From assembly GCA_035504095.1 (NCBI GenBank), contig DATJSN010000092.1:68845-132844 (forward strand): a stretch of DNA of 64,000 nucleotides. Reading direction: 5' to 3'. Within the stretch, counting starts at the first letter, position 1. Each line of letters opens with the position of its first letter. The notes under the pieces were generated by a model, which saw only the letters and a program-made list of their open reading frames with translations, was not told the DNA's origin and ran no database searches. Both the position numbers and the translations under genes were made by a program. Shown here piece after piece: positions 34,930 to 52,907 of the stretch. This DNA comes from Phycisphaerae bacterium. GTDB lineage: Bacteria; Planctomycetota; Phycisphaerae; WQYP01.

Positions 34930-35054
34930 TTACGTTGAGGGAGGCGAAACCGGAGGGCGCTACACCATATTTATATTGGTTGGAATGATGCTATCTTGCG
35001 AGTGCTGCCACACAAAGCATTATCGAGCTCGTTCATGGTAGTACAAGTACCGGG

Positions 35055-36407: not shown

Positions 36408-36572
36408 AAATACTCTCCTGGTCTACGAAATAAACGGTGCATAAAATGTCCCGGATAAGTTACACGACAATACGGCAGAATTCAGCGAGATTTACCGGGC
36501 GGCGGGCCGAGAAATTGAAGTGCATGCGGAAATTGGTATCATGCTAGTTATGTCCTCATTCCGCTCTGTGAG

Positions 36573-37520: not shown

Positions 37521-38884
37521 TGGACGCCCTCCTGCTTGAGAAAATAATCGAATGTATAACGGCCAATATCTTTGGGAGGCATGCTAGGGCGCCGTAGGTG
37601 TTCGCGCACCTTTTCTAAGTCTGTAAGATTCACATTGTATCGAACGCTCGCCGTGGTCTTCTGTTTTCGCGGAAGCTTTTCCGGATTAAAGCTGCGGCTT
37701 GGCACTGAAGCAACCTGTCCAAGATCAGCTTGGCTAAGGGAAGTCATTATCTTCCGTTCATCCGAGGTCACTTCTGATTTTGACTGAGATAGACTGTTCA
37801 AGAAAGAATAAACTGGCCTTGCGATACTCGCCATTCGCTCACGAACTCGCAAGAACACAGCAGCTTCACGGTTGAGGCTGCGCTTCGTTGTGGTCCATGG
37901 AAGTTTCAAGGGGTCGCGAGAAGAAAAGGAAGCAATTCCAATGAATCCTCGCGATACACTGGTATGAAATTGTGGAAGAATGCCAGCTCCCCATCCGGTC
38001 AACTCCGTTTTGTCTGCGGCAAGAATTACGCGACCGTTACAGAGAACATACCATCCGGCAGGTTCAGCTCGCCATTCATTGGATTCGCCCCTTGCTGCAA
38101 GTCCAGCGATAAGTGTGATGTGGACGCCTTCCTCATCCCATGTCTCCACGGCGGGCGTGAAATTTTCGGACGCACCAAGTGGGATTAATGTGGGAGAAAT
38201 AGACATTCCGTTGAGAATAATATCGACGTATCGAGTTAAAAATGAAGCATAAGTTTGTGCAATCGAGCGATGCAGTGCAGTTGTTGTTGTCGGATCTCTG
38301 AACAGCGACTGGATGTCAGGGCTGATTCGTGCAATATTGATTGTCGTTCCAGGCTGCTCTGGGGGCATTGCTCCTTCAAGGTGATCCAAGGGAAACCGCC
38401 AGTCATTGAGAGTGTCATCCTTCTGTGACCACTCAGCAACATCCACCTTGACTCGAAATCCGTTAACGGCTGTATGAGATGTCATTTCGAAATGATCGCC
38501 AATCTTAAAAATTGCTCGCTTGAGACCAATTCCATAAGCACCCAGTTGTGTTGTGCCCATATCACCGGCAGGGTGTTCCGCATGGCCAAAATTGAATACT
38601 TCCCGTTCAGCATAAGCTTGGTCAATTCCTCCACAATTGTCCTGAATGGAAAAACCGTCTTTTGTATAACTAACCTGAATTCTAGCCTTAGGCTCGTTGA
38701 TAGGTATTATAGGATTGGTGTTCAACAGGTCCTTTGCGTCGAGATTAAGTTGACGCGACCGAATCAGGCCATCAATGGAATTGTCGATCAAATCTAAAAT
38801 GCAGTCTTGGAGTGAGATGTCTCGCGTGAACATCTCCAAAAAAAACCTCTTACGCGGGAGCGCGAGTGCATATGTGTCGGACAT
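37517..38884 (-). CDS. GHKL-superfamily (MutL/MORC-like) ATPase
   Basis: N-box LDLIDNSIDG, G1 box IQDNCGGID, G2 box GAYGIGLKRAIF. Confidence 0.6.
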   Translation of the reverse strand: MSDTYALALPRKRFFLEMFTRDISLQDCILDLIDNSIDGLIRSRQLNLDAKDLLNTNPIIPINEPKARIQVSYTKDGFSIQDNCGGIDQAYAEREVFNFGHAEHPAGDMGTTQLGAYGIGLKRAIFKIGDHFEMTSHTAVNGFRVKVDVAEWSQKDDTLNDWRFPLDHLEGAMPPEQPGTTINIARISPDIQSLFRDPTTTTALHRSIAQTYASFLTRYVDIILNGMSISPTLIPLGASENFTPAVETWDEEGVHITLIAGLAARGESNEWRAEPAGWYVLCNGRVILAADKTELTGWGAGILPQFHTSVSRGFIGIASFSSRDPLKLPWTTTKRSLNREAAVFLRVRERMASIARPVYSFLNSLSQSKSEVTSDERKIMTSLSQADLGQVASVPSRSFNPEKLPRKQKTTASVRYNVNLTDLEKVREHLRRPSMPPKDIGRYTFDYFLKQEGVQ

Positions 38885-39345
38885 GCTCTGTTCCTTCCAA
38901 TCTCTGGTCAGGCACTAATCAGTATATAGTTACCCGTATTCGCTTCAGCCAACCGTTCTATACCACGTTTCGGAACTAATTCCAGTTGGCAGCAAAACCG
39001 ACACCAACCCTAGTGCACGACCACGATGCTGATCTTTCCGTTGTAGGACTTGTTGGCTAGGTAACCTGCGAAACACCAGCCACTCTTCAATTTTGAAATC
39101 ATTGTCGCTTGTTTGAATCGCCCTGTAAACGGCTAATGCAACGACGGATAATCAGATGCCTGGTTAATAATTCAAAGCGTGCGTGCCGGAATTGGTGGTT
39201 GTCCCTAATAGTTCCAAAAGGTCGCTGTCCAAACCATTTCACACCCTCACGCTTAAACTTGCTTCCTAATCGCACTGATATGGCATATGCCCCGGTAAAT
39301 TGCGGCTGCGTCGAGATCACTGGCGGTCATGATCCTGCAACGATT

Positions 39346-40797
39346 TCATCTTCGAACAACCAAACGATGTCCTTTTAGTGTGACTCCGCGTTGGAGCAAG
39401 ACTTTTTCCCAACCGTTGCGCGTTCCAATTGTTGCGGTATCATCAAAAAGTCTATGCCTTTCTTCTTGTTTGGTAAGATGCTCAAAGCGTTCTCTGCGTG
39501 GATCATCAGGCCCTAGGAATGTTTCCTTGCGATGCAATATGGGTGGGTTTGTTGAGTCCCGGAAGTTCAAGTGCTTTACATCCCCGTTGCTGAGCTTAAG
39601 ACGTAGTGATTCAGCTAGAGCAGGATGAGGATCGGTATTAAACTCTGGATACAGCAGATACGACACTTTTGGCTCAACCCGATTCAACTTGATCAAATTT
39701 GCGCCCTCAACATGACCCAGATAGCTGCGAGCACACCCCTCATAGACGCGGAGTAGAGCTGGCAGATGGGCCAGCGCATCGACATGCACATAAAGGGCTT
39801 CGCCCGTAAGCTTTCCGACCGGTGAATGCTCCATCGAATGATTGAGTTCCGCCATGTTTCCGGTGCGGAAAAGCAGTTTATCACCCTCAACGCAGGCCTT
39901 ATTGTACGTGGAGAAGAATTCTCGCACATCCAATTGCTGGTCCGCCGGTAGCTCGGAGAACCGTGGGCGACCACCAAAGCGGTCCAATGCAAAGTGGATT
40001 AGCAACTCTTCTCGCCGTTCCTGCTGTAACTGCTCCCAACGCTCTGCCCCAGTGACGCGCCGAACAACCGCGAATGCTTTCGGCACACTGCCGAAGATTT
40101 CAGCAAGTTGACCATGAACGGGGAATTCTTCAGGTGCAGGCAGCCGTCCGCGATCAGCCACAAATTCCATCAATGGCATGAGCAGATTCTCATGCTGTTG
40201 GAACAGAATGTCGCTCATCCGTGGAACAGGCACCGCCCGATGTCGCCTATACCTAGCTTCTAGGAACCGCTGGCGCAATTCTTCATCGCGGAAAATAAAG
40301 AAAATTCCTGGCGCAGCAGCCAAGGCACGTTGCACCAAGACCTGCTCCAACCAGTCCCGTAGCTCAAGTTGGTTGAAGAATTTCTGAAAAGTTCCGCGAC
40401 CGGTTAGACACCCATCGGCATATGACTCGAACCTCGCCTCCTTGGCCTCGTATACGAGCCGAGCTGAAACAATCAACAGTTTCTTGGCCAAGTCCCATGC
40501 TGATCGCACGACATTGGCCCGTTCTTCTACATTTTCGATAACATTGACTACATAACCCAAGTTCACTACGTCCGCAGATATTCGGGGTGCCTGGGGTTGA
40601 TGGACGGGGTCCCAGCCCGCCGCTTGAAATCCAGAGTCCGCAAGGTTACGCAAATCGTCGCCGCGCCCGCAACCATAGTCGAAAACGGTCGTTTCAAAAT
40701 GGATTAAATGCGACTCCAGGGCCGCACGGAAGGGCTTTGATAGTCCGGCGCGTCCGATAGCCGTTTTGTGACGATGAATTTGAGGCACGTTCGACAT
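39346..40797 (-). CDS. DNA phosphorothioation-associated putative SAM-dependent methyltransferase
   Basis: VFDYGCGRGDD motif I. ATG at 40797 preferred, since the longer ORF to 41004 would overlap divergent dndA. Confidence 0.55.
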   Translation of the reverse strand: MSNVPQIHRHKTAIGRAGLSKPFRAALESHLIHFETTVFDYGCGRGDDLRNLADSGFQAAGWDPVHQPQAPRISADVVNLGYVVNVIENVEERANVVRSAWDLAKKLLIVSARLVYEAKEARFESYADGCLTGRGTFQKFFNQLELRDWLEQVLVQRALAAAPGIFFIFRDEELRQRFLEARYRRHRAVPVPRMSDILFQQHENLLMPLMEFVADRGRLPAPEEFPVHGQLAEIFGSVPKAFAVVRRVTGAERWEQLQQERREELLIHFALDRFGGRPRFSELPADQQLDVREFFSTYNKACVEGDKLLFRTGNMAELNHSMEHSPVGKLTGEALYVHVDALAHLPALLRVYEGCARSYLGHVEGANLIKLNRVEPKVSYLLYPEFNTDPHPALAESLRLKLSNGDVKHLNFRDSTNPPILHRKETFLGPDDPRRERFEHLTKQEERHRLFDDTATIGTRNGWEKVLLQRGVTLKGHRLVVRR

Positions 40798-40910
40798 GTT
40801 ACATTCGAATTTCCAAAACAAAGCCGACGGTCCATGTTTCGAGCAAGCGCAAGGCTGCATTGCAACAGCCTGCCATTGGCTCAGACAACAGTATGTCATA
40901 GGATGTCGGC

Positions 40911-42041
40911 ATGATCTATCTCGATCACAATTCAACAACACCAGTGCTGCCGGAAGTATTGGAGACGATGCTGCCTTATTTCGGCACAGAATGGGGGAAT
41001 CCATCGAGTACTTATCGTTTTGGTGCGAAATTGAAGGGTATGATTGAAGCTGCTCGTGGTGAGGTCGCCGAACTTATCGGAGCACATTCCCGCGAAATAT
41101 TATTTACTTCCTGCGCTACGGAGAGCAATAATACGGCGATTCATGCGGCATTGAAAGCCAATCCTGGCAAGCGGCACATTGTTACATCATCGGTGGAACA
41201 TTCGTCAGTTTTGAATTACTGCATGGCGTTAGAAAAAGAAGGCTTTCGTATAACTTATTTGCCGGTAGATCGAGATGGTCTTCTAAGACTAGCGGACCTA
41301 GAAAATGCAATTACAGTTGATACCGCCATCGTATCTTTAATGTGGGCAAATAATGAGACGGGGGTGCTGTTTCCTGTAAAAGAGATTGCGGAACTATGCC
41401 GGTCCCGAGGGGTTTTGTTCCATTGCGATGCAGTGCAAGCGGCTGGGAAGATTGAAATTGATGTGAAAAAAGTACCAGCAGATTACCTATCGCTAACTGG
41501 CCATAAGTTTCATACACCAAAAGGCATCGGAGCCTTGTTCGTGCGCCGGAAATCTCCATTTACACCATTGATATTTGGCGGGCATCAAGAACGTAGTATG
41601 CGCGGTGGAACTGAGAGCGTGCCGCTAATCGTCGGCATAGGCAAAGCTGCGGAATTAGCGAAGAAACACCTGTCCGACTACAACAAAAAGGTCCGCCCCT
41701 TACGTGATACACTAGAAAAGGGCATTTTGAACTCAATTCCGAACGCAGAGTTAAACGGCCATAAAACGCAACGACTGGTTAATACCACAAACATTACTTT
41801 TCACGGAATTGAATCTGAAGCAATGCTTATACTTCTCGACAAAGAAAGTATTTGTGCTTCGTCCGGTTCGGCTTGTTTGGCGGATTCAGATGAGCCGTCA
41901 CACGTAGTTCGGGCCATGAAGCCCAATTCAACGGCGTCGCGGCAGATGATACGTTTTTCTCTGGACATTGCGAATAATTCTGCCGACATCAAGACGACAT
42001 TGACGGTTTGTCAGCAAGTGGTCGCAATGCTCCGCAGTTAG
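40911..42041 (+). CDS. dndA: cysteine desulfurase (NifS/IscS class; DndA role)
   Basis: PLP-fold desulfurase: TSCATESNN, HK (SLTGHKFH), C-terminal SGSAC active-site Cys loop. Confidence 0.8.
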   Translation: MIYLDHNSTTPVLPEVLETMLPYFGTEWGNPSSTYRFGAKLKGMIEAARGEVAELIGAHSREILFTSCATESNNTAIHAALKANPGKRHIVTSSVEHSSVLNYCMALEKEGFRITYLPVDRDGLLRLADLENAITVDTAIVSLMWANNETGVLFPVKEIAELCRSRGVLFHCDAVQAAGKIEIDVKKVPADYLSLTGHKFHTPKGIGALFVRRKSPFTPLIFGGHQERSMRGGTESVPLIVGIGKAAELAKKHLSDYNKKVRPLRDTLEKGILNSIPNAELNGHKTQRLVNTTNITFHGIESEAMLILLDKESICASSGSACLADSDEPSHVVRAMKPNSTASRQMIRFSLDIANNSADIKTTLTVCQQVVAMLRS

Positions 42042-43273
42042 CGACGTTTAATCCTTGCATGTGCGTCTCCGAGTACCCTCCGGTACTCTTCTACGACATT
42101 GTAATTTGTCGGCGCTGGGTCTTGGTTGGCCATGTAGAGAAGTAAATTCAACGCAAGTTTCTTATACTTCACGATCATAGTCTTTGTGGCAGCATTCCAG
42201 AGCACACCCACCAATGGATTTGACGAAAGATTTAACTGTACCTTCGCTAACTTCATTACGGCGGAATCAACGGATGTTCCCCTATCAATCATCACTCTAA
42301 CTGCCCGTGTGAAGGCCTGTAAGCCAGCGGGTCTAAAAAGCAAATGTCCTCCATTTTCTGTCCTATATCTTCCGGCGAGCGCTGCTCTTGGTGGTGAAGA
42401 CATAACCTTCGCTAGAGGAGGGATGTTCTGCTTGAGTGCGTTCCAATAGGAGATTACAAAATCATTAATTTCTTCGACACGCTGCCAATTAGGCGGGCCC
42501 ACCTCCAGCACCTTTCGTTCACGACTTCCGGTAGCAATACTTATAGTTCGAACCAATTCATAAAGTGCTATTACTGTAGTAACACTAGTCAGATTTCCTG
42601 GCGGAATATTCGCAGTTGGAGAGAGTGGTACAAATTCACCGTTCAGTCCTTGGTATGTGTCAATTAGCCGACGAGTCACGATTGCAAATGCATCATCGTC
42701 GTTGAGGGCGATTAGCTCGGCAGGAGACACAGGCTTTGCGTATTTATTGAGAGTTGTGAACAATCGGCGTGTTCTCTCTCTTCCTTCGTCGGTTCGCTTA
42801 TGTGATACGAAAATGACGACTAATTCATCTTCTTTCAGCTCTACATTACGCTTCAGTGCTTCTTTGATTCCATCAACACGGTGCTGTCCATCGACTGCGA
42901 ATATCTCTTCATTTCCTGACAGATGAAGAAAACCAAAAGTGTTTGCCTGACGTTCATCAAGCTTGATATCCTTTAGCGTCTTACTACTACCGACCTCAAC
43001 TGGAAACCATTCAGGTTCTCCACCATAGATGCCAACAACCACAGCATTAAAAAAGTGTTGTTTTTGTTTAATGAGATAGGTTGCGATTTCCTCTTTCCTT
43101 TCAGGGCGCAAAACTCGTTGAATCCAAGTCTTTAATTCCTTCCTCTCATGTATTTCATCGACTTGTCTGATCCATTTTGCGACTTCGGCGAAGGTCAGAG
43201 TAGTGACATAGAACCATCGATCTCCCATCCGGGAACGAAGTGCGGGAAACAGATTTGAAGGTTGTTCATTCAT
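42038..43273 (-). CDS. dndB: DGQHR-domain protein (DndB-like)
   Basis: Exact DGQHR motif (FAVDGQHRVDGIKEA). Confidence 0.6.
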   Translation of the reverse strand: MNEQPSNLFPALRSRMGDRWFYVTTLTFAEVAKWIRQVDEIHERKELKTWIQRVLRPERKEEIATYLIKQKQHFFNAVVVGIYGGEPEWFPVEVGSSKTLKDIKLDERQANTFGFLHLSGNEEIFAVDGQHRVDGIKEALKRNVELKEDELVVIFVSHKRTDEGRERTRRLFTTLNKYAKPVSPAELIALNDDDAFAIVTRRLIDTYQGLNGEFVPLSPTANIPPGNLTSVTTVIALYELVRTISIATGSRERKVLEVGPPNWQRVEEINDFVISYWNALKQNIPPLAKVMSSPPRAALAGRYRTENGGHLLFRPAGLQAFTRAVRVMIDRGTSVDSAVMKLAKVQLNLSSNPLVGVLWNAATKTMIVKYKKLALNLLLYMANQDPAPTNYNVVEEYRRVLGDAHARIKRR

Positions 43274-43276
43274 GGA

Positions 43277-43783
43277 TCAATGCGAAAATATTTTGGCTAA
43301 AGCATGACGAACCGAAGCTGGAAATTTGTGATTAGAAGGTGGTAAATATGCTGCGAGCAAGGCATTTTCCACTTTTTTTATGTCTTTTCTTTTGTGTATT
43401 ACAGCATAGTAAAACCATAAATAGCCATCCCATTTGTCCAGCATCTCAACCACATGCAGCCGTCGAGACAAGTCGCCTCTTTTTTTATCACTTAAATACT
43501 GAGAAAACCGATCACGAAGCATTTGCCTCTCCGTCATACCGACGTACATAAGATAAGAACAACTAGGGTGGCGGGCGATTCCCGGCTTTATTATAAACGT
43601 ATAAACACCTCCCGCATTGTTGGGCACGTAATTACTCTTCGTAGATTCAAACTTAACATAATGCCACTTCAGTTTTGATCGCAACTTGTAACTGCACCAA
43701 TGTGAAGGAGAAAGCACCATCCTTGTCAATTTATAATCATTGAGTTTGTACTTAGAGGTTTGTCTGCTAAAAATATCGTCCAT
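43277..43783 (-). CDS. small GIY-YIG-like putative nuclease
   Basis: GVYTF...YVGMT...R...E...N spacing resembles GIY-YIG. Confidence 0.3.
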   Translation of the reverse strand: MDDIFSRQTSKYKLNDYKLTRMVLSPSHWCSYKLRSKLKWHYVKFESTKSNYVPNNAGGVYTFIIKPGIARHPSCSYLMYVGMTERQMLRDRFSQYLSDKKRGDLSRRLHVVEMLDKWDGYLWFYYAVIHKRKDIKKVENALLAAYLPPSNHKFPASVRHALAKIFSH

Positions 43784-43789
43784 GCAAAT

Positions 43790-45277
43790 TTATTTTCCTT
43801 CATCTTTCCAAAACTGCCTAGCCATGCCGGTGGTTTGCAACTTCCCACGATTACAAAGCGCTGCTTCGGCCTTTAAAAATTTCTGATGAATGACGCTCCC
43901 GAGAACATTTTTTTGATCCGCGACACTCAGTGTCTGTGGGGAAAAGTGCACGCCGCACTCGGCGAGTTGGGCGAAATTGGTTTCATTCGTACCCGTGGTC
44001 AAAAACTTGTCGGCATCTTGAGACGCGAGCCAGACGGGAAAACCCCATGATCTTCCCTGCCGGGCGAGCGAACTTAATAAGCCAGCTTTATTTTCCTTTG
44101 GCAAGAGCAAATGGGCTTCGTCCACGAACAACACCATTTTGATCGGTTGTACGTCATTTTTGACAGCTACTTGTTGGCTCAATTTTTTAATGAGGAAGTT
44201 TAGGATGAGCGCAACGGCAAGCGCTTTGCCATCGCTGTCTGTGTTAAATTCCTTAAAGTCAATCACCATGGAACTATTCAGCCACTCTTCTGGAGGAATT
44301 GCAGTATGGGCACTGGCAAAAAGATTATAACGCTCAATTTTTTGCACGATGGACAAATCAACTCCGTTTGCGCCGCTGTTTTCCAATTCCCGAACCAAGG
44401 AGGTAATGTCAGGAGAGGCAAGCCGTCGGTAGCAATCGCAAATATTCCGTTCCTGTTTTGCCCCCATTTGTGGCGCAAAGCAACGAATCAAACCAGCTAT
44501 CTCGTAGGCAATTTGATCGTTCTTCGTTGGATTTGGGTGCCGGTAAAGCGGATTGATTGGCAAATCTTGCTGGATAAGACGGACATAGCGTGCACTAGTC
44601 TGTTCCAAAAATTTGGTACGGTTCTTGCGTTGCTGCGGGCTGCGAGGATCGTCTTCTAGTTCACCTTTCATGTCAAAAAAAACAAAACGGACGCCAGTAT
44701 TGCTGAGTTGCGCCAAGAGATCGAGTGCAAGCTGGCTTTTTCCACTACCAGGTTGCCCAGAAATAACTAACAGTCCATTGTTAGTTCCGGGACCGTTTAA
44801 CGACCATTCGGGCGCGTCCGTCAGAACCTTGAGTTTTATTTCCTTTTCGACTAATTGCATGGGAGCCACGGCCTGTCTCAGCATGTAAGGAAGGTCAAGA
44901 TCGCCTCCTATAGATTTCAACAGGGAGGTAACAAAACGCGCTTGGTCGTTGCCTGACTCTACCCATATCTGCCGTAATCGCTGACACCCAAACTCAAAAT
45001 GTCGGCGAAATTCCTGACGGTAGCCCCCTTCATCGAGAGTTTGTCCGGCACGGTGATTCAAGGCTGTTCGCACCAAATCTCTCAACTCATCGCCGACAAC
45101 CTGCTCGTCATTCAACGTCACCCCTTTGGCGTCTTTGGGTTTAAATTCGGCGGGTATACCTTCACCCAACGCCAAGAAAAGTGCCGCACGTCCTAGAATT
45201 GCCTGATTCCTTGCGCCTACACGCGCAAAGACATTTTCGATGAATTCGTGCGCTTCGCTGCTTGTATCAAATTTCAA
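43790..45277 (-). CDS. HerA/FtsK-like (DUF87-type) P-loop ATPase
   Basis: Walker A ISGQPGSGKSQ; Walker B VLFVDEAHLL. Confidence 0.5.
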   Translation of the reverse strand: MKFDTSSEAHEFIENVFARVGARNQAILGRAALFLALGEGIPAEFKPKDAKGVTLNDEQVVGDELRDLVRTALNHRAGQTLDEGGYRQEFRRHFEFGCQRLRQIWVESGNDQARFVTSLLKSIGGDLDLPYMLRQAVAPMQLVEKEIKLKVLTDAPEWSLNGPGTNNGLLVISGQPGSGKSQLALDLLAQLSNTGVRFVFFDMKGELEDDPRSPQQRKNRTKFLEQTSARYVRLIQQDLPINPLYRHPNPTKNDQIAYEIAGLIRCFAPQMGAKQERNICDCYRRLASPDITSLVRELENSGANGVDLSIVQKIERYNLFASAHTAIPPEEWLNSSMVIDFKEFNTDSDGKALAVALILNFLIKKLSQQVAVKNDVQPIKMVLFVDEAHLLLPKENKAGLLSSLARQGRSWGFPVWLASQDADKFLTTGTNETNFAQLAECGVHFSPQTLSVADQKNVLGSVIHQKFLKAEAALCNRGKLQTTGMARQFWKDEGK

Positions 45278-45292
45278 GCTGGTTTCTCCAAC

Positions 45293-47362
45293 TCAAACAA
45301 CATGTCCAAAGTAGTCATTTGTGACGCGAACCTCATAATTATGACCATCGGTTCGTCCATGCGGATGCAGCGTATATACACGCGCGAGTCGATTACGAAT
45401 TTTATCAAACAAAGGGCCATCTGGATCAATTTCAGCATTGGTGCTAAGGATAATGGATTGGTGGCCGCTAAGGTATAGTTGGTCAAGCACGTTGGCACGC
45501 ACTTCTTTATCGAGCCGCGCTAAAGGCGTATCCACAACCAATGGCGGAACGAGCTTGGCGAGACGCCGAAGGGCTTCATAAAAAGCCAACATTCGCACCT
45601 GCCGCTGCCCGGCAGACGTATTGGTTTCTTCCCATGTCACCTTTTTGCCGCCACGCCGTACAAGCCAGCATTGCCAATTACTATCAAATTCCATACCCTC
45701 GAACTCGCGTTCCCGTTCTGCGATTTCCACCCATAACTTGCCAACTTCTTCTGAAATCTGCCGGCGCATTTGAATAGCAGCACGACTACGAATCTCGCCA
45801 GCGGCTTCGCGATAGCGTGTTGATAAAGCAGCCAGGCTTTCACCACGTTCAGCACGTTCGGCAATTTCCCTTTGCGTGGTTTCCTGACGTTTAAGATCAA
45901 CTAATTCAACCCCCATCCGAGTGATTTCAGCATCAATGTCCTTTAGCCGGTTGCTAATTTGATCGCGGCAAGTATTGAGACCGCCCCGTTTTTCATGGAG
46001 TTCTACGCCACGCTTATATGCTGCTGTATTTTGTTGCATCTGTTTCAGCTTTTGATCAATCTGCCGCAACTCCACGGTCATTTTTTCGATGTTGACGCAC
46101 ATTTCAGCTAAATCACGAAGATCACTTTGGTTTGTGGCCAGCCGTGCGCGCACTTGAGCACTCGTGTCGTTACGATCCGCTAGATAAATCCGATCCGGGA
46201 TACCTTGGGGAGGCGGATGAAACAGCCGATGGAGCGCGTCCTCAAGCCGCTTCATGTAAAAAGACTCAATATCTGGCTGAATCGCAAATTCCTTTGGCAC
46301 ATTGCCGAACACATCCTGTTTTACCTGCGGAATTTTCGGCTCGACGCTGGATTTAGCGCTTTCCCATTCACGACGGCGCTCTTCTGCAAGCAGAGTATCG
46401 TGCAATTCTTTCCGATAAATTCCCAGCAAAGAAACCGGCAAGGTCAATTCCCAAGCTTCTGTGAGTTTATCTTCAAGTTTTGTCTTGGCTTCTGTGAGTT
46501 CTGTCCGACGTTCTTGAGCTTTTTGTAACTCGTCAGGATCAACTGCACCGAGGGTCTTCAAATCGTCTTCGACTTCCAATAATTCCGCCTCGATTTCATG
46601 CAAATCGCGCTTAAGCGCATCAAGCTCTTTTCGTCTTGCCTTCAGGACACCTTCGACGGTTATGACTTTGCCATTCAATTCGGCCAGTAACGTTTCGGGG
46701 TCTGTGCCGCCAGAAGCATTGTAAACACGAGGAATTTTTGAACTGATCAATTGGCGGAGATCACTTTCCAACTCGGAGTATGTCCAAAGACCGAGAATTC
46801 GACTCACGCCTTCAACAATGTCTTGTTGTCCCAGATTGATGCTCTGACTGCGTTCAGCATCAAAGAAAAAGAAACGGGCGAGATGCCGTGGCAGAAAAGC
46901 GTCACGTAGTTTATGAATTACCTGTTCATCTTCGATTCGACCTGCTGTGTCGGAACGTGTGGCATAATGTTCCCAGATAGGTGATGAGTTAAGACGAAAC
47001 CGAACTTCACGAAGCAGATCAATTTTTCGACTACCAATTTTATCATCACGAAGATGAACAACGGCTTTCAAACGCATCGTGTCCTGACCCTCAGCCAAAG
47101 CGCGTCGATTCAAAGATTTTTCAAAAGCAAATCGGGTTGCATCGGAGCCAGTCTCCACTTTTTTCAAATCTCCAACCCCGCTTTCACCAACGACCGCCAG
47201 ATACAAAGCGCGAAGCAAGTGCGTCTTTCCGGCACCATTCTTTCCTCCTATAAGAATGCCACATTTGCCTTCTAAACTGCGGAAGTCAATTTTGTGCTCG
47301 CCATAGAATGGCCCAAAGTTCTCCAGCGTTAATGAGTCAATATAGACTTCGGACATAATCAA
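45293..47362 (-). CDS. dndD: DNA sulfur modification protein DndD (SMC/ABC-like ATPase)
   Basis: N-terminal P-loop GGKNGAGKTHLL, long coiled coil, C-terminal signature/D-loop region; 689 aa. Confidence 0.7.
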   Translation of the reverse strand: MIMSEVYIDSLTLENFGPFYGEHKIDFRSLEGKCGILIGGKNGAGKTHLLRALYLAVVGESGVGDLKKVETGSDATRFAFEKSLNRRALAEGQDTMRLKAVVHLRDDKIGSRKIDLLREVRFRLNSSPIWEHYATRSDTAGRIEDEQVIHKLRDAFLPRHLARFFFFDAERSQSINLGQQDIVEGVSRILGLWTYSELESDLRQLISSKIPRVYNASGGTDPETLLAELNGKVITVEGVLKARRKELDALKRDLHEIEAELLEVEDDLKTLGAVDPDELQKAQERRTELTEAKTKLEDKLTEAWELTLPVSLLGIYRKELHDTLLAEERRREWESAKSSVEPKIPQVKQDVFGNVPKEFAIQPDIESFYMKRLEDALHRLFHPPPQGIPDRIYLADRNDTSAQVRARLATNQSDLRDLAEMCVNIEKMTVELRQIDQKLKQMQQNTAAYKRGVELHEKRGGLNTCRDQISNRLKDIDAEITRMGVELVDLKRQETTQREIAERAERGESLAALSTRYREAAGEIRSRAAIQMRRQISEEVGKLWVEIAEREREFEGMEFDSNWQCWLVRRGGKKVTWEETNTSAGQRQVRMLAFYEALRRLAKLVPPLVVDTPLARLDKEVRANVLDQLYLSGHQSIILSTNAEIDPDGPLFDKIRNRLARVYTLHPHGRTDGHNYEVRVTNDYFGHVV

Positions 47363-48654
47363 CCCTTTTTCTCTGCTGATTGCTCTGCCAAGTCATCTTT
47401 CAAAATATTGAGCAAATCGTCCGGCAAGCCGTATGCACGATGGCTTTCACTGTATTCCTCTACTTTGGCAAGCATACGACGGAGAATATCGGGGTTGATT
47501 TTCTTTTCACTGGCAACTTGTTCCTCCAGTTGGCGTAGACGGTTCAGTTCTCGCAAATCGGTATTCATGATGACACCTCGTTGTTTGTTGATGATTCGGG
47601 CAACACCCCGACCATCGTCGGGGTCACGTGCTGCTTTCCACATTTGCTGAATCAAAAGTAGCTCTTCTGGCGTGATGAGCGGCAACCCAGTTTCTTCCTG
47701 TAGCTGGAGAAGGCGCTTCAAGAGTTCGCGGCGACCTTCAATTCGTAATGGTCCAGGTCCATCATTGCCGTTCATGCGGCGGCTGTCACGCCAACCATTT
47801 GCAGGATCACGGAATTGTATAAGTGTTTCACGGAAGGCTATCAGATGTTCCATTCGTTCATCACCAGCGGCAAGCAATCCTTCGCTTGCCTTGTCACGAT
47901 CTACAACGGTGCATGTCCAACATCCAAAACGCGAATTGCCGCAAGAGGGAGTGCTGGTATCAATCTGGATAGGGCACTCGCCGTTGGAAGCATTGGCGTA
48001 TAGTCTATACAAGGAGCGATTATCACTACCCCAAGGATTGTTTTTTTGAAGCAGATATGCCCAGACTTCCTCAGTAGAGAGGAATTCGATTGGATTGTTA
48101 ACCCACACGAGCGGCAAGTCAGGATGACGACGCAAGCCATTACGAGTTATCTGGCCAGCCATTGTCTGTGCCCGTGTGGCGCTTTCAGCACGTCTTGCAC
48201 CCAAATGTAAAATGGCTTCGCCCCAGTGACCAATACGCTGGTTTACGAATGTCGTGACTGGATCAATTTTCATACGCTGAGTACACCAGCGGAATGTACG
48301 ATTTGGTGGTGGATAGCCGCGACCAATAATATTGACCCAAAAGGATTGTTCCGGAGGCGGCTTTAGCAACTGAGTTTCAATGTTAAGATTATTTTGCCGA
48401 GAGCAGCGCCGCATTCGCTCAAGATTCCCTTCAATCCCCTCTGAAACTGCCGGTATCTCGACACGAGTATCAGTGCAAAGGATCGCAATGGGCTTTTTCC
48501 GCTGGTCAACCGGTAGGGACAGGACAGTGTCAAAAACGAGTGACGCGACCATCGTGCTGTCTTTACCCCCGCTGAATCCAACAAGCCAAGGACGTTCATC
48601 TTCGACGTAGAGTCGCAGCATTGCATCTCGTATATCCTGGAACGCCGTGCTCAT
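47359..48654 (-). CDS. dndC: DNA phosphorothioation sulfurtransferase DndC (PAPS reductase/PP-loop family)
   Basis: FSGGKDS PP-loop and C-terminal Cys cluster CGNSRFGCWTC. Confidence 0.8.
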   Translation of the reverse strand: MSTAFQDIRDAMLRLYVEDERPWLVGFSGGKDSTMVASLVFDTVLSLPVDQRKKPIAILCTDTRVEIPAVSEGIEGNLERMRRCSRQNNLNIETQLLKPPPEQSFWVNIIGRGYPPPNRTFRWCTQRMKIDPVTTFVNQRIGHWGEAILHLGARRAESATRAQTMAGQITRNGLRRHPDLPLVWVNNPIEFLSTEEVWAYLLQKNNPWGSDNRSLYRLYANASNGECPIQIDTSTPSCGNSRFGCWTCTVVDRDKASEGLLAAGDERMEHLIAFRETLIQFRDPANGWRDSRRMNGNDGPGPLRIEGRRELLKRLLQLQEETGLPLITPEELLLIQQMWKAARDPDDGRGVARIINKQRGVIMNTDLRELNRLRQLEEQVASEKKINPDILRRMLAKVEEYSESHRAYGLPDDLLNILKDDLAEQSAEKKG

Positions 48655-49280
48655 AATTCCTGTTCTTTCTTTACAAAGTGTTGAAATGCGACCGCGAAGC
48701 CTAGACCCTGCGGAAGCTACGAAAACGGTACTTCACAAATAGGACTATAAGGATAACTTATGGTCCGTTTACTGGCCAATAGGCTCCTAAAAGCAAAAAT
48801 GTCCTCTTCGATTCTGGGCTTAAACAGGGTGAAATTCTTATTTGATGGTTATTTGATGAAAAGGCCGTGAATAGACAGACAATCAGTCGATTGAGCCCAA
48901 AAACCTTGATTTTCAATGGATATTGCAGAAGGGAGAAATGGGTTTTATTTGATTGTCATGTCATATTTTCAATGATTGTCTGGAGCAGGATCATCCGGAA
49001 GCGTTTTTCTATCATGAGTATGGCCAGTGGGGATGTGAAAAATCGTGAGATTTTGATACTAAATCACATAATCCCTTGCAGGTACCTGGCTTAAGATACA
49101 CAAACCAGTCTCAATCCCCGTGAGACACGTTGCACCAGACGAGTCGGGACGACATTCACTCTGAATAGGTTGATCCGGACGATGTAATAGTTCCAGGCAG
49201 GGTTTGAAGTCAATGTTGAGGGCGGAATTAAGCCAGGCCGTTGTCATGCCTGTCAGTCAAGTTTTAATTTCAGCCGGGCA

Positions 49281-49329
49281 AATTAAAGGATTACGCCTTT
49301 TCCTTTAATTGTGAAGCCTTTAATTAAAG
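49281..49329. promoter_or_regulatory. cluster of CCTTTAATT iterons/palindromes (AATTAAAGG ... TCCTTTAATT ... CCTTTAATTAAAG) in an AT-rich intergenic region upstream of alpA-primase
   Basis: Read directly from the sequence. Confidence 0.35.
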
Positions 49330-49692
49330 TTCCCTTCATTGAGAAAATTGGGTCAGCTTTATCAACAGAATCGGCGGCTGGCGTGGTGCTAATAAGAGGA
49401 AATGAATTAATTGTGAGGCTTGAAAGTGTATATAAAACGCTTGTTTTCCCGTCTAAAACCGCTCGTTTTACTTCTCACGATAGAATTTATTTACTATTTT
49501 AGACCCATAATATCGCTATTATTATTAAAATATATCATATTTTGTTCATAATAACGATGTTTTGATCGTAATAAGTTCTAAAAACACAAAATTTCATCGC
49601 ATCTAACCTGCGTGGTTTCCCTATTCATAGATAAAGCACGCCGTGGCAACGCAAGTGCGTTGTGCAGTGCCAATTGGTAACAGGAGTTTTTT

Positions 49693-49881
49693 ATGTTACG
49701 TCAGGATCGAAACGAAACGCTTCTAACCAAAGTTGAAGTCTGTCAGCGGCTTAAATTTTCCTCGCGCAAGCTAAATCGGCTTGTTGCAGCCCGTCAGATT
49801 CCAGCCCTACGGGCCGGGCGGCATCTTCGGTTCCGCGCAAGCGACATTGATCGCTACATCGACACCCTTCCGGCGGCGTGA
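49693..49881 (+). CDS. AlpA-family transcriptional regulator/excisionase
   Basis: KVEVCQRLKFSSRKLNRLVAARQIPALRAGRHLRF. Confidence 0.55.
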   Translation: MLRQDRNETLLTKVEVCQRLKFSSRKLNRLVAARQIPALRAGRHLRFRASDIDRYIDTLPAA

Positions 49882-49936
49882 CATACGAGCTAGTTGAAAA
49901 TGGTTAAGACAGACGCGAGTAGAAAGAAGTATTTAC

Positions 49937-51931
49937 GTGAATAATCATACACAAACTAATCCGGTATTGCAGGCGGCGCTCGATTATTCGCGCCTGGGAT
50001 TACCGGTGTTTCCATGCCGCCCAGACAAGACACCATATACGCCGAACGGCTTTAAGAACGCGACGACCGACGAGAAAACGATTCGGGGTTGGTGGAATCT
50101 TTACCCCGATCTTCTGATTGGTATGCCAACAGGTAAGTCATCTGGTGTGAGCGTGCTGGACATTGACGGCGCCGAAGGTGAAGCAGGCTTAGCAACTTTA
50201 TTGGCAAACAATAATATGCCGGACGCCCCATGTGTTCGCACTGGACGAGGCGGAAGGCACTATTGGTTTTCTCACCGGGATGGAATCAAAAACTCGCAAT
50301 CGACAATCGCTCCGGGCATCGATGTTCGCGGTGAGGGTGGCTATGTGATCCTTCCGCCGAGTTCAAGCAAGCATGGCGCGTACTCGTGGATTAGGAAGTT
50401 TTCCGACAAGCTTGCCGAACTTCCAAACTTCCCCGATTGGCTCAAACCTGCGCCCAGTCAGCCAGCTTTGCCGGTGGGGCATAACGCGACGATTATTTCG
50501 CCTGATGACCAGATAAAACGATGCCGTGCCTACCTGGGCAAGATGTCGGGCGCTATTAGCGGGCAGCGTGGACATGATCGCACGCTTGAGGCAGCGGCAA
50601 CGTGTTTCCGGTTCGGGCTTTCAAAAGATCAGGCTTGGCCACTGATTCTAGAATTTAACTCGCGATGTTCGCCGCCTTGGACTGAGAAAGAACTCGGGCA
50701 CAAGCTCGAAGACGCCGAGCGGAAGGTTCGCGAGTCCGGGGAATTCGGAAAGTTTCTCAATGAGCCGACCTGGCAGCCTTCGCCGTCCGCGTTAGCAGAA
50801 AAAACAACCGGGGTTTTGCCGGAATTGTGCGAGGCCGCTGACATTGCTGACGATGAAAATTCTGAGCTTGGACCACCGGTCATCGACGGCTATCTAAGGC
50901 AGTCCGAGACCATGAATCTCATTGCCGCGCCAAAACTCGGCAAAAGTTTTTTGAGTTACGGTCTTGCCCTATCGGTAGCTCTGGGGCAGCCATGGCTCGG
51001 TCAGTTTCCCTGCCCCCCTCGCAAAGTTTTAATATTGGACAACGAATTGCACAAGCGCACGTTGCGTCACAGGATTAAGCAGGTATGCCGGGCGATGAAC
51101 ATTGATCCTGAAGCACTTCGCGGAAGATTATTCTTCGATATATTTCGTGGGCGACTGGTGCGATTCAATGAACTAACACCATACTTTACCAGCCTGGCTG
51201 ACCACGGGTTCAGCCTGATTATTTGTGACGCATATTATCGGTTTTTTGCGGGCGACGAAAATTCCAATTCCGAAACCGCCACTGCATATAACCTGCTCGA
51301 TCAGTTCGCCGCATTGACCGGCGCGGCAATCGTCCTCATACACCACCAATCGAAGGGGGATCAGTCCGGTAAGTCCGTCACCGACGTGGGCGCTGGCGCT
51401 GGTTCGCAGAGTCGGGCAGCGGATACCCATGCTGTTATGCGGGAACACGAAGAGCCGGGCAAGGTCGTCCTGGAGGCTAAATGCCGGACTTGGAGAACGC
51501 CTCTGGCGATTACGCTCGAATACGACTATCCGTTGTGGAAGGCTCGCCCAGACATTGTGCCTGTTCTCAAAACCCTAAGAAAAAGAAGGGTGCGCGATGA
51601 AACCGAAAAACCCAGTTACGAGACGGCTGCCGAACTCGCCCTTGATGAACCCAAGCCGCTGGTTTATTTCACGGCAAAAATGCGTCTTGGGGCAACCAAA
51701 ACAAGGCAACTCTTAGCGGAAGCCGTGGAGTGTGGTTTGATCCATGCATGGCCGCCGGCAACAAAAAATGAACCCGCTCGGTGGGCAAATAAATCACCCC
51801 CGTTAACGCAAGAGGGGTGCTCGCACGCACCCTATATACACCCCAAGTGTGCGGGAACGCACCTTGGGGCTGAGGTGCTCGCAGGTGCGAGCACTCGCAA
51901 AAAAACGGAAAACGAAAAGGAGAAACCATGA
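49937..51931 (+). CDS. bifunctional DNA primase-polymerase (Prim-Pol) with RepA-like AAA_25 helicase/ATPase domain
   Basis: N-terminus LGLPVFPCRPDKTPY...; Walker A AAPKLGKSF; Walker B VLILDNE. Confidence 0.7.
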   Translation: MNNHTQTNPVLQAALDYSRLGLPVFPCRPDKTPYTPNGFKNATTDEKTIRGWWNLYPDLLIGMPTGKSSGVSVLDIDGAEGEAGLATLLANNNMPDAPCVRTGRGGRHYWFSHRDGIKNSQSTIAPGIDVRGEGGYVILPPSSSKHGAYSWIRKFSDKLAELPNFPDWLKPAPSQPALPVGHNATIISPDDQIKRCRAYLGKMSGAISGQRGHDRTLEAAATCFRFGLSKDQAWPLILEFNSRCSPPWTEKELGHKLEDAERKVRESGEFGKFLNEPTWQPSPSALAEKTTGVLPELCEAADIADDENSELGPPVIDGYLRQSETMNLIAAPKLGKSFLSYGLALSVALGQPWLGQFPCPPRKVLILDNELHKRTLRHRIKQVCRAMNIDPEALRGRLFFDIFRGRLVRFNELTPYFTSLADHGFSLIICDAYYRFFAGDENSNSETATAYNLLDQFAALTGAAIVLIHHQSKGDQSGKSVTDVGAGAGSQSRAADTHAVMREHEEPGKVVLEAKCRTWRTPLAITLEYDYPLWKARPDIVPVLKTLRKRRVRDETEKPSYETAAELALDEPKPLVYFTAKMRLGATKTRQLLAEAVECGLIHAWPPATKNEPARWANKSPPLTQEGCSHAPYIHPKCAGTHLGAEVLAGASTRKKTENEKEKP

Positions 51932-52197
51932 CAATGAAACCTGAAAATCTGCCGCCTTGTCCGGCTGAGCTTCCGATGCCCCAAGGTGGCTGCCTGCTTT
52001 GCGGTCAACCGGAGACATCCGCATCTGTTTGGATGAGGCTTGCTCACCACGGTAAACAGAGAGCGATCAAATATCGCCTTTGCCATGAACATGCCATACA
52101 TGCGGAGGACTTTGTTGATGCCATCAAAGACGCCATTAGGCGAAAAGTAGTAGCTGAGCGTGCAACTAAGAATAACTTTGATACGGAGAATTTATGA
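51928..52197 (+). CDS. small Cys/His-rich (zinc-ribbon-like) protein
   Basis: CPAELPMPQGGCLLCG...CHEH. Confidence 0.3.
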   Translation: MTMKPENLPPCPAELPMPQGGCLLCGQPETSASVWMRLAHHGKQRAIKYRLCHEHAIHAEDFVDAIKDAIRRKVVAERATKNNFDTENL

Positions 52198-52445
52198 AAA
52201 TCGACAATAAAATTCGGCGTGAAGTATTGATACGGTTTGGCGAGGAAAGACGGGAGACCATCGAGGCAGATTGGCGTCCAGAGTTGGTTGACGACGTGGC
52301 CTGCCTCTTTGTCGCCCAAAGGATGGACCTTCCGCTTAGTTTGGTGCGTGAAATATGTCTGACTGATGCCCCGGAGACTTAACAACGCAAGCGCGAGGGT
52401 ATCGGGCAGGGACTGAAAACGAGATAAATACGGGTTTTTTGTCCG

Positions 52446-52904: not shown

Positions 52905-52907
52905 GTC

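Follow-up and report, generated by a model that had tools for sequence, protein, structure and literature searches.

A DndEi-type phosphorothioation cassette on a tRNA-Leu element of a Phycisphaerae bacterium carries a GIY-YIG/DGQHR gene pair as putative two-component accessory

The stretch of 64,000 nucleotides analysed here, in the following called the window, derives from a Phycisphaerae metagenome-assembled genome and harbors an element of approximately 34 kb that is integrated at tRNA-Leu. The element is bounded by exact direct repeats of 42 bp (20470-20511 and 54554-54595), the second of which ends within the 5' half of the tRNA-Leu, and its G+C content falls to 0.38-0.49 compared with about 0.52 outside. 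In addition to genes for an integrase and a Prim-Pol/AAA_25 protein, it carries numerous genes for defence and addiction (AbiEi/AbiEii, TIR, AbiJ-like and a PD-Lambda-4_A-like protein). The locus of interest on this element is a predicted phosphorothioate (PT) modification cassette of the DndEi type, consisting of a dndC-dndD-dndEi operon with a convergent dndA (Table 1). All seven open reading frames listed in a first-pass annotation of the window were found again at their positions, and the profile matches described below bore out the identities and the order of these genes. Five of them, from dndC to the DGQHR gene, are tightly packed on the minus strand with one overlap of 4 nt followed by gaps of 15, 6 and 3 nt, the 6-nt gap being the one between dndEi and the gene for a GIY-YIG protein of 168 amino acids. 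The dndA gene overlaps the DGQHR gene convergently by 4 nt and is separated from the divergent methyltransferase gene by a spacer of 113 nt.

Table 1. Positions of the element, the PT cassette and associated genes in the window, with the matches on which the assignments are based.
Feature	Position	Strand	Size	Basis
Integrated element carrying the dnd locus	20470..54595	.	~34 kb	42-bp direct repeats, tRNA-Leu, integrase
Methyltransf_35 gene	36573-37520	-		Pfam
GHKL ATPase (HATPase_c_3)	37517-38884	-		Pfam
PT-associated putative SAM methyltransferase	39346..40797	-	483 aa	TIGR04096; ATG at 40797
dndA, NifS/IscS-class cysteine desulfurase	40911..42041	+	376 aa	Aminotran_5, PADLOC DndA
DGQHR-domain, DndB-like ParB-superfamily protein, proposed sensor/NTPase partner	42038..43273	-	411 aa	TIGR03187, Pfam DndB
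GIY-YIG (URI) nuclease-like protein, proposed effector	43277..43783	-	168 aa	Conserved catalytic motifs
DndEi, DndE domain plus HerA/FtsK-class ATPase	43790..45277	-	495 aa	Pfam DndE, family profile vs PDB
dndD, ABC/SMC-like ATPase	45293..47362	-	689 aa	TIGR03185, PADLOC DndD/PbeC, AAA_23
dndC, PP-loop/PAPS-reductase-like sulfurtransferase	47359..48654	-	431 aa	TIGR03183, PADLOC DndC
Prim-Pol/AAA_25 gene of the element	49937-51931			Pfam Prim-Pol
Integrase of the element	53132-54664			Pfam Phage_integrase

In PT modification, sulfur is supplied by DndA and transferred by DndC, and DndD and DndE(i) locate the target site and open it. The dndC product scores above the equivalog cutoff of TIGR03183 (367.9 vs 290.4 bits) and reaches 416 bits with the PADLOC DndC model. 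The dndD product stays below the cutoff of TIGR03185 (174 vs 245.85 bits) with an alignment that runs from end to end (residues 8-685 of the protein, positions 3-650 of the model); it is matched by the PADLOC models DndD (201 bits) and PbeC (202 bits) as well as by Pfam AAA_23, and its gene adjoins the one bearing the DndE domain. For dndA, matches to Aminotran_5 (284.6 bits) and PADLOC DndA (480 bits) were obtained, while the equivalog cutoffs of TIGR03235 (379 vs 480) and TIGR03402 were not reached; its position and convergent orientation are kept in 62 related loci.

The first-pass annotation had reported that the locus has no recognisable dndE and an extra HerA-like ATPase. The former statement has to be withdrawn, and the ATPase is not an extra component. 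Pfam DndE (PF08870) aligns with residues 3-103 of the 495-aa protein over positions 2-105 of the 111 in the profile and scores 28.7 bits (gathering threshold 25); on TIGR03184, which models the stand-alone DndE, the score is 16.5 against a cutoff of 71.85. The Pfam match is shared by 23 of 25 family members, and the identical protein is annotated at NCBI as 'DndE family protein'. When a profile of the family was compared with the PDB, its N-terminal part found the solved DndE structures 7x4e (1.7e-16), 4lrv (2e-5) and 5wtu, and the remainder found the C-terminal domain of DptH (7es4, 2e-49), HerA and FtsK. Both the Walker A (GQPGSGKS) and the Walker B motif (VLFVDEAH) are intact, and a partial PADLOC match to DndH (46 bits) is confined to the ATPase domain. 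Hence, the N-terminal part of the protein is a DndE DNA-binding domain and the rest a HerA/FtsK-class ATPase, and the ATPase belongs to the modification core because DndE is its N-terminal domain.

Such a fusion is already known as the DndEi type and is therefore ordinary. DndEi-type dnd clusters have been described from Riemerella anatipestifer, Flavobacterium indicum and Kordia (Zheng et al. 2016; Barbier et al. 2013; summarised in PMC6435447), the extra domain of the Riemerella protein has been reported as a helicase/ATPase required for PT modification (PMC6435447), and clade-3 HerA/FtsK proteins fused to DndE have been recorded by Rakesh, Aravind and Krishnan 2024 (PMC10853773). In both bodies of literature the fusion gene adjoins dndD (PMC6435447; PMC10853773). 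The window shares with the published clusters, in the case of the Riemerella protein going by its published description, the combination of a DndE domain and a P-loop ATPase of the helicase/translocase type in one polypeptide, the placement of the fusion gene directly after dndD (dndC-dndD-dndE(i)) and a cysteine desulfurase nearby. The GIY-YIG/DGQHR cargo, however, is a feature of the window that is absent from the published description of DndEi clusters. Members of the lineage to which this DndEi belongs stem from uncultured Phycisphaerae, Nitrospirota, Acidobacteriota and comparable groups, and their identity to the remote members of the family that were sampled is only 21-28%.

The organization of the cassette was compared across 62 related loci, out of 114 fetched, in which dndEi as well as dndA was identified and in which the dndC, dndD, dndEi and dndA products are 60-89% identical to those of the window. 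As judged from these sequences, the space separating dndEi from dndA is a variable cargo slot, which in the window holds the GIY-YIG and DGQHR module. A small protein together with a DGQHR gene is the commonest content (40 of 62 loci), nine loci contain a HATPase_c_3 plus Methyltransf_35 pair, the slot is empty in L059 and L066, and elsewhere a PIN protein, methyltransferases or different genes are present. Of the 40 slots that contain a DGQHR gene, 14 yielded no GIY-family reading frame; in seven of these, which were read individually, the frame preceding the DGQHR gene encodes a small protein with 3-4 hydrophobic segments (five were scored for hydrophobicity), which are probably membrane-spanning. 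The clades of the DGQHR protein track the type of partner, and the DGQHR motif is kept in all of them.

The 168-aa product of the slot has no match in Pfam, NCBIfam or PADLOC, the latter including the DndF, DndG and Pbe models, and the profile of its family found nothing among PDB sequences. Its description as GIY-YIG-like in the first-pass annotation has nevertheless gained support. The catalytic set G59/Y61, Y80-V81-G82, R92, Y96, E139 and N151 is conserved to at least 90% in 28 aligned members of the family, drawn from Dnd-linked as well as Ssp-linked loci, with a spacing of about 19 residues between GIY and YIG that is longer than usual. One homolog (P0039) carries PF01541, and the top Foldseek match of the protein is T4 EndoII, a weak hit (E 0.18, probability 0.82) obtained with a model of mean pLDDT 69. 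The motifs and this weak fold match thus point to a GIY-YIG nuclease-like protein with retained catalytic residues.

Its partner is related to DndB. The DGQHR protein exceeds the cutoff of TIGR03187 (125.9 vs 58.85 bits), matches Pfam DndB with 113 bits, contains the motif VDGQHR at residue 128 and aligns by hhalign with the canonical DndB of locus L015 at 98.3% probability over 343 columns. Therewith, it shares the DGQHR motif, the Pfam match and homology along the full length with DndB as defined by TIGR03233. However, it remains below the DndB equivalog cutoff of that model (70.5 vs 328 bits), to which its N-terminal half alone aligned. Moreover, the gene in the window is located at the end of the operon while a dndB gene is located at the head, and genes of the window type always have a small partner gene before them, which sets them apart from dndB. 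The DGQHR protein is not simply DndB: in L015, a bona fide DndB (PF14072, 460 bits) stands alongside the GIY-YIG/DGQHR pair, and a true DndB likewise accompanies the pair in Rhizobium sp. NXC14.

The two genes of the pair are strictly linked. Wherever a related locus was of sufficient length for a judgement (33 of 33 loci, from at least ten bacterial and archaeal phyla), the DGQHR gene comes immediately after the GIY-YIG gene, and the stop and start codons often overlap. These loci include sspABCD clusters without any dndEi, and hence the earlier suggestion that the DGQHR protein belongs with the ATPase did not hold: its partner is the GIY-YIG protein. Sufficient flanking sequence was available for 24 genome loci, and in 22 of them PT-modification genes lie at most 10 kb from the pair, namely in six loci of the DndEi type, one with canonical dndBCD and fifteen with sspBCD; in the two others, the archaeal loci L020 and L027, no PT genes were found within this distance. 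The pair accordingly adjoins DndEi-type dnd clusters, canonical dndBCDE that keeps its own dndB, and sspABCD. Beyond these genome loci, three plasmids from cultured strains carry the pair beside PT genes. On plasmid pRspNXC14a of Rhizobium sp. NXC14 the order is GIY-DGQHR-MTase-dndBCDE-A, and on pROLI83 of Roseobacter litoralis B14 the pair directly follows sspABCD. On pTiK1_93 of Rhizobium sp. K1/93 it heads a run encoding proteins of 589, 513 and 1809 aa (the last with an FtsK C-terminus), which resembles SspFGH and is convergent with sspABCD. The pair also coexists with SspE-like genes (L024) and is therefore, together with its coexistence with SspFGH-like genes, not a simple replacement for them. 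It diverges faster than its surroundings, being 44-68% identical where the core genes of the same loci are 71-85% identical, and no copy was found on the viral contigs searched.

Further genes around the cassette may belong to the same context. The methyltransferase gene diverging from dndA was correctly named in the first-pass annotation, although its length is 483 and not 484 aa if counted from the ATG at 40797. Its product reaches 583 bits with TIGR04096 (cutoff 150), the alignment beginning at residue 75 of the long reading frame, and homologs stand beside PT genes in L032, L094 and L095. The GHKL ATPase and Methyltransf_35 genes (36573..38884) show about 30% identity to the pair that fills the slot in the nine sister cassettes mentioned above; they have no PADLOC match and possibly represent a second accessory module. 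From their sequences and neighborhoods, both the TIGR04096 methyltransferase and the GHKL/Methyltransf_35 pair are putative further PT-associated accessories.

Based on gene context, we infer that the GIY-YIG/DGQHR pair is accessory to PT and not part of the modification machinery. The DGQHR protein would be an NTP-dependent sensor reading the PT state of DNA, which would license or restrain the small GIY-YIG partner as effector. The pair might thereby introduce nicks into foreign DNA that lacks the modification, or cause the death of the cell when modification fails, and would work as a two-polypeptide, split analogue of DndI/SspE. Known partners of the dnd and ssp modules are DndI and SspE, PT-stimulated NTPase-nickases in which a ParB-like NTPase is fused to an HNH nickase in a single chain (GmrSD-type DUF262 plus DUF1524; PMC11662687; PMC9646914). 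Like these, the pair combines an NTPase-type domain of the ParB superfamily with a small endonuclease, occurs beside Dnd and Ssp genes and can coexist with DndFGH/SspFGH-like modules. Unlike these, it is split into two separate chains, a GIY-YIG nuclease and a protein of the DGQHR/DndB type, whereas DndI and SspE are one polypeptide with an HNH domain and DGQQR/DUF262. Neither protein of the pair is matched by GmrSD_N or GmrSD_C in Pfam, hhalign of the DGQHR protein with a GmrSD-like protein gave 0.2% probability, and hhalign and Foldseek detected no sequence or fold link to the N-terminal domain of SspE/DndI; the only Foldseek match was a weak one to sulfiredoxin. Given the DGQHR motif, the missing GmrSD matches and the hhalign result, the pair is at most a functional analogue of SspE/DndI and not a member of that family.

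Stand-alone URI (GIY-YIG) nucleases in dnd neighborhoods have been noticed before and were proposed as effectors (Rakesh et al. 2024; PMC10853773). Those genes and the one in the window have in common that a GIY-YIG-class gene lies beside Dnd modification genes. However, the former are found at system boundaries, sometimes on the opposite strand, and were viewed as unregulated back-up suicide effectors, whereas the latter is inside the operon, strictly paired with the DGQHR gene and present in Ssp systems too.

How far does this reading hold against others? The DGQHR protein might instead be the DndB of the cassette, an ATP-modulated repressor or limiter of PT, with the GIY-YIG protein making the nick to which DndE-type proteins bind, so that the pair would stand on the modification side. 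This would agree with the full-length homology to canonical DndB and the Pfam match, with the shared operon and its gaps of 3-15 nt to dndC-D-Ei and with the pair of small protein and DGQHR gene being the commonest slot content; moreover, DndB is documented as regulator of the PT level, not as restriction factor, and DndE prefers nicked DNA (review). We nevertheless regard it as rather unlikely, because a genuine DndB coexists with the pair in L015 and Rhizobium sp. NXC14, the slot is empty or occupied by unrelated cargo in some sister cassettes, a nicking helper would not be swappable for a small membrane protein, and on pTiK1_93 the pair is co-oriented with the SspFGH-like genes and not with sspABCD. 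The pair also accompanies sspABCD, a system with a nickase of its own (SspB) that is not known to require DndB. A stand-alone toxin-antitoxin-like or abortive-infection module, in which the DGQHR protein would control a small toxin in defence islands without reading PT, appears still more doubtful. The small partners are indeed of toxin type, either nucleases or proteins with 3-4 transmembrane segments, the element of the window is rich in defence and addiction genes, the two archaeal loci have the pair without PT genes within 10 kb, and the stand-alone URI nucleases near dnd genes were proposed as back-up suicide effectors (Rakesh et al.; PMC10853773). However, PT genes of three non-orthologous types lie no more than 10 kb away in all but two of the 24 genome loci and usually share one gene run with the pair, a far more specific coupling than general residence in defence islands, and no copy was seen on viral contigs.

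Two other explanations deserve the least credit. According to the first-pass annotation, HerA-like ATPase and GIY-YIG nuclease could together be a compact module for restriction or regulation that replaces DndE and DndFGH. The genes are adjacent, and the ATPase domain of DndEi is related to the C-terminal ATPase of DndH/DptH, but the ATPase itself bears the DndE domain, about 80 loci, the majority of them without a GIY-YIG gene, keep dndC-dndD-dndEi at 70-87% identity, and the GIY-YIG gene accompanies sspABCD where dndEi is absent. PADLOC detected no DndFGH or PbeABCD module at the locus beyond the partial DndH match to the ATPase domain and the PbeC match to DndD; a dndE homolog is thus present while the small protein matches no DndFGH/PbeABCD component. 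This grouping is contradicted by the distribution of the genes and very improbable, whereas the underlying notion of a compact, phosphorothioation-linked accessory module at the locus was right. It is hardly credible, finally, that the 168-aa gene represents a homing endonuclease of the free-standing GIY-YIG kind which entered the operon by chance. GIY-YIG homing endonucleases are common mobile genes, and selfish nucleases do invade this operon, as dndD is interrupted by an HNH_2 reading frame in several relatives. However, the position relative to the DGQHR gene is constant across phyla and systems, the protein diverges in step with its DGQHR partner, and, being only 168 aa long, it is without the DNA-binding domain that homing endonucleases typically have at their C terminus.

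On balance, we slightly favor the view that the locus is a DndEi cassette on a tRNA-Leu element whose slot pair may act as PT sensor and effector, with gene context pointing to the sensor-effector part. More tentatively, and with somewhat less than even confidence, the DGQHR protein and its small partner could represent an undescribed family of two-component PT accessories, in which the DndB-like subunit would sense and the small one, either a GIY-YIG protein of two subtypes or a protein with 3-4 transmembrane segments, would restrict or kill, and which would be portable among DndBCDE, DndCD-Ei and SspABCD systems. About 84% of the sspBCD clusters have neither sspE nor sspFGH, i.e. no known restriction partner. 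If true, the two-component family could explain part of the PT clusters in this situation. The pair therewith addresses the question of what role is played by 'orphan' dnd and ssp clusters, most of which have no recognised restriction partner, and it bears on whether proteins of the DndB family regulate the modification or sense it. Since cultured carriers exist, the idea is directly testable, and a nuclease plus DndB-like pair that tracks three PT machineries in bacteria and archaea is a clonable candidate for a missing partner.

The locus at 39346-48654, in which seven intact genes were found, is a DndEi-type modification cassette for DNA phosphorothioation (PT). Its five minus-strand genes are tightly packed, with a 4-nt overlap between dndC and dndD followed by gaps of 15, 6 and 3 nt, and the desulfurase gene is convergent with the DGQHR gene and divergent from the methyltransferase gene, which in fact starts with the ATG at 40797 and so encodes 483 aa. 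Identical proteins are recorded from a Phycisphaerae metagenome-assembled genome, where NCBI names include "DndE family protein" and "DGQHR domain-containing protein". The scan for promoters and terminators between 38.8 and 50 kb gave no signal above shuffled controls.

Features of the cassette, its host element and related loci (positions refer to the window unless a related locus, L, is named)
Feature	Location	Strand	Remarks
dndC	47359-48654	-	TIGR03183, 367.9 bits vs cutoff 290.4
dndD	45293-47362	-	TIGR03185 full-length match, 174 bits, below cutoff; PADLOC DndD/PbeC about 201 bits
495-aa P-loop protein (DndEi)	43790-45277	-	residues 3-103 match Pfam DndE
168-aa GIY-YIG-like ORF	43277-43783	-	GIY-YIG residue set
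411-aa DGQHR protein	42038-43273	-	TIGR03187, 125.9 bits vs 58.85; Pfam DndB 113 bits
dndA, NifS/IscS-class cysteine desulfurase	40911-42041	+	PADLOC DndA 480 bits
PT-associated methyltransferase	39346-40797	-	TIGR04096, 583 bits vs 150
HATPase_c_3 + Methyltransf_35 pair	36573-38884	-	outside the slot
Direct repeats of the element	20470-20511, 54554-54595		42 bp, exact
Tyrosine integrase	53132-54664		beside tRNA
Prim-Pol/AAA_25 replication protein	49937-51931
Conflict genes of the element	20749-22459, 22844-23314, 23899-24876, 29260-30171, 30748-34929
Slots with HATPase_c_3 + Methyltransf_35	L056, L062, L064, L070, L090, L092, L099, L102, L103
DGQHR slots without GIY-family ORF (included)	L044, L047, L048, L050, L061, L063, L071, L072, L089, L094, L106, L110
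Interrupted dndD	L001, L002, L009, L081, L083		probably also L048, L068, L097, L102, L103, L114
Extra 80-aa gene	L003 8246-8488, L004 2259-2501		between dndD and dndEi
Pair-headed run, pTiK1_93	L117 171742-182472
HATPase_c_3/helicase/PLD trio	L015 5597-9903, L032 11668-16014, L118 (pROLI83) 10654-15078

The first-pass annotation was mostly accurate on these genes, but its headline of an atypical locus, lacking a recognisable dndE and carrying an extra HerA-like ATPase, is wrong. The Pfam DndE profile matches the 495-aa protein with 28.7 bits at a gathering threshold of 25, covering profile positions 2-105 of 111, and it singly matches 23 of the 25 members (21-86% identity) from which a DndEi family profile was built. 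The N-terminal part of this family profile matches three solved DndE structures, 7x4e (1.7e-16), 4lrv and 5wtu, and its remainder matches the C-terminal ATPase domain of DptH (7es4, 2e-49), HerA and FtsK; the family profile was needed, as a PDB-sequence search with the N-terminal 140 residues alone gave nothing useful. Because the protein carries a DndE domain, the "extra ATPase" belongs to the modification core and is of the already known DndEi type. We liken it to the Riemerella DndEi by the description of the latter, whose extra domain reportedly has a helicase and ATPase activity that PT modification requires (PMC6435447). Among clusters of distant DndEi-like proteins, the look-up brought up no named member from Bacteroidota, and no DndEi relatives were found in the plasmid collection.

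Scanning metagenomes with DndEi yielded 80 loci, onto which the window proteins were mapped. The core of these loci runs dndC-dndD-dndEi and then dndA in convergent orientation, with 60-89% identity to the window, and the interval between dndEi and dndA ranges from 66 bp to 4.8 kb with contents that vary by locus. Hence, the DndEi cassette has a variable cargo slot. Among the 62 loci in which both interval ends were located, 40 hold a small ORF plus a DGQHR gene, nine an HATPase_c_3 plus Methyltransf_35 pair, two are empty (L059, L066), and the remaining ones contain a PIN protein, methyltransferases or unknown genes. The window has its own HATPase_c_3 (GHKL/MORC-like) and Methyltransf_35 (PF20553) pair, which shares about 30% identity with the slot pairs of the sister cassettes and gave no match in PADLOC; this pair may be another PT-associated accessory module. 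As a separate observation, dndD is interrupted in several related loci, where an ORF of about 310 aa with an HNH_2 domain separates dndC from a truncated dndD and short AAA_23 fragments lie close by, which looks like recurrent nuclease insertion or a split dndD. Two further loci carry an extra 80-aa gene without Pfam match between dndD and dndEi, which is absent from the window with its 15-nt gap.

The cassette resides on an element of about 34 kb with lower G+C than its flanks. Since the 5' half of tRNA-Leu(taa) contains the end of the right-hand bounding repeat, the element appears to be integrated at the 5' side of this gene. The integrase ORF as listed extends across the tRNA gene and therefore probably stops earlier in reality. 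Other conflict genes on the element are of AbiEii/AbiEi-like toxin-antitoxin type or encode a protein with a TIR domain, a metallopeptidase-domain protein that resembles the anti-restriction factor ArdC, an AbiJ-like protein (AbiJ_NTD4/DUF7014) and a 1393-aa protein that matches PD-Lambda-4_A (95 bits).

Regarding the slot content of the window, the 168-aa protein is accepted as a putative GIY-YIG nuclease on the basis of its intact active-site residues. It has no match in Pfam, NCBIfam or PADLOC and no record in the exact-sequence look-up, and it belongs to a compact family of 45 clusters with 50-63% identity. Across 28 members from all contexts, G59-x-Y61, Y80-V-G82, R92, Y96, E139 and N151 are at least 90% conserved, matching the GIY and YIG motifs and the Arg, Glu and Asn residues typical of GIY-YIG nucleases. 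The equally conserved hairpin P-x-IA-x-HP-x-C-x-YL (residues 66-78; at least 90% family-wide) forms an insertion that separates the GIY strand from the YIG strand and makes their spacing unusually long; partner binding or substrate recognition are possible roles. One homolog carries PF01541 and another is named a UvrC-type nuclease by JGI. The fold evidence alone is weak, because the AlphaFold model (mean pLDDT 69) has T4 endonuclease II as best but weak PDB match (E 0.18, probability 0.82), and the PDB-sequence search with the family profile gave nothing useful. A homing endonuclease was rejected in view of the constant position before the DGQHR gene across phyla and systems. Checking the locus against TIGRFAM/Pfam, as the first-pass annotation had proposed, and against PADLOC revealed dndE and no match of the small protein to any DndFGH or PbeABCD component, hence it was also rejected as a part of those systems. 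The suggestion that ATPase and GIY-YIG protein form one compact module replacing DndE/DndFGH was abandoned, because the ATPase is DndEi, carrying DndE itself, and the GIY-YIG gene pairs with the DGQHR gene.

The pairing of the GIY-YIG and DGQHR genes is obligate. When the GIY-YIG family alignment was scanned over one genome per species, 26 loci were found, and in all 33 judgeable loci (genome loci and metagenome contigs) the DGQHR gene lies directly 3' of the GIY-YIG gene, its start codon often overlapping the GIY-YIG stop codon. Carriers include Acidobacteriota, Verrucomicrobiota, Nitrospirota, Poribacteria, Chloroflexota, Cyanobacteria, Actinomycetota, Desulfobacterota, Bathyarchaeia, Hadarchaeota, Thaumarchaeota and others; none was found among the viral contigs searched. 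Three kinds of PT machinery accompany the pair. Its closest relatives are within dndC-D-Ei cassettes, one pair (L015) adjoins a canonical dndB-C-D cluster, and fifteen adjoin SspB (DUF4007, 310 bits), SspC (PADLOC, 1075 bits) and SspD (389 bits), mostly accompanied by a desulfurase. PT-modification genes occur within 10 kb of the pair in 22 of the 24 genome loci with enough flank, the other two being archaeal loci without such genes in this range. In loci with the pair, identity to the window amounts to 44-68% for the pair and 71-85% for the core genes.

Three cultured carriers were found in the plasmid collection. The plasmid pRspNXC14a of Rhizobium sp. NXC14 has the order GIY-DGQHR-methyltransferase-dndB-dndC-dndD-dndE-desulfurase followed by Pbe-like genes, and pROLI83 of Roseobacter litoralis has sspA-B-C-D-GIY-DGQHR followed by PLD, ATPase and helicase genes. 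On pTiK1_93 of Rhizobium sp. K1/93 the pair heads a co-oriented run, convergent with sspABCD, with genes for proteins of 589, 513 and 1809 aa. The latter three resemble SspFGH by published description, with a domain match for the 1809-aa protein only (FtsK-type C-terminal domain; PDB 2iuu, 1e-37), hence one plasmid has the pair and SspFGH-like genes in a single gene run. Next to the pair in one Dnd-linked and two Ssp-linked loci, a recurring trio of HATPase_c_3 ATPase (about 575-615 aa), ResIII/DEAD helicase (about 540-555 aa) and PLD-family nuclease (about 300-320 aa) was noticed, with weak PADLOC matches to MzaB, PbeA and DrmC. In five Ssp loci from Poribacteria and Latescibacterota (L017, L018, L022, L024, L026), an ORF of about 820 aa immediately up- or downstream of the pair shows a weak GHKL ATPase signature (HATPase_c_3, E 2e-4); L024 has, in addition, a gene for an SspE-like protein (GmrSD_N+GmrSD_C).

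Homology of the DGQHR protein to canonical DndB extends along the entire protein (hhalign 98.3%, 343 columns), but the protein scores far under the DndB equivalog cutoff (70.5 vs 328 bits). Because it coexists with true DndB, namely in L015 (PF14072, 460 bits) and Rhizobium sp. NXC14, it is taken to represent a paralogous DndB-like subfamily rather than the DndB of the cassette. PDB-sequence searches gave nothing useful, and Foldseek against the PDB with its model (mean pLDDT 85.6) gave no significant match, listing just a sulfiredoxin at rank 5. The partner of the DGQHR protein can be swapped. In 14 of the 40 DGQHR-containing slots the GIY-family HMM found no ORF, and in seven of these that were read the ORF ahead of the DGQHR gene encodes a small protein with hydrophobic stretches, with 3-4 membrane-spanning-like segments in the five that were hydrophobicity-scored. 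Those partners with a clear start measure about 160-180 aa. The partners belong to no fewer than three families unrelated to one another, and each of these families has a DGQHR clade of its own; other slots hold a divergent GIY-like partner of 194 aa. The DGQHR clade matches the partner type exactly, and the motif DGQHR (residues 109-135) is kept in every clade. Thus, a predicted membrane protein can replace the nuclease.

As to function, we infer that the pair is more likely than not a PT-linked sensor-effector module working like DndI and SspE, ParB-like NTPases fused to an HNH nickase, in which PT-DNA stimulates the NTPase and thereby controls nicking (PMC11662687). The DGQHR protein would be the sensor or switch and the small protein its effector, and both together would constitute a PT-linked restriction or abortive module. 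The likeness would be one of principle, because domain tests placed the pair outside the DndI/SspE family; hhalign of the DGQHR family against a GmrSD/SspE-like protein found no relationship, although remote homology may have escaped a comparison with a single sequence as target. Full-length homology to DndB favours instead a DndB-type regulator with a nicking helper, which is the main rival; however, it appears unlikely, as the pair coexists with true DndB and also accompanies Ssp systems, some slots are empty, and a membrane protein can serve as the partner. A PT-independent toxin-antitoxin or abortive module is even somewhat less probable, because it would poorly fit the specificity of the association with PT genes.

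In the profile libraries and literature searched, no description of the pair as a unit was found. PADLOC has no model for its GIY-YIG nuclease, and the sole literature mention found concerns URI nucleases in general at system boundaries (PMC10853773). The part of this locus worth following up is the GIY-YIG/DndB-like pair.
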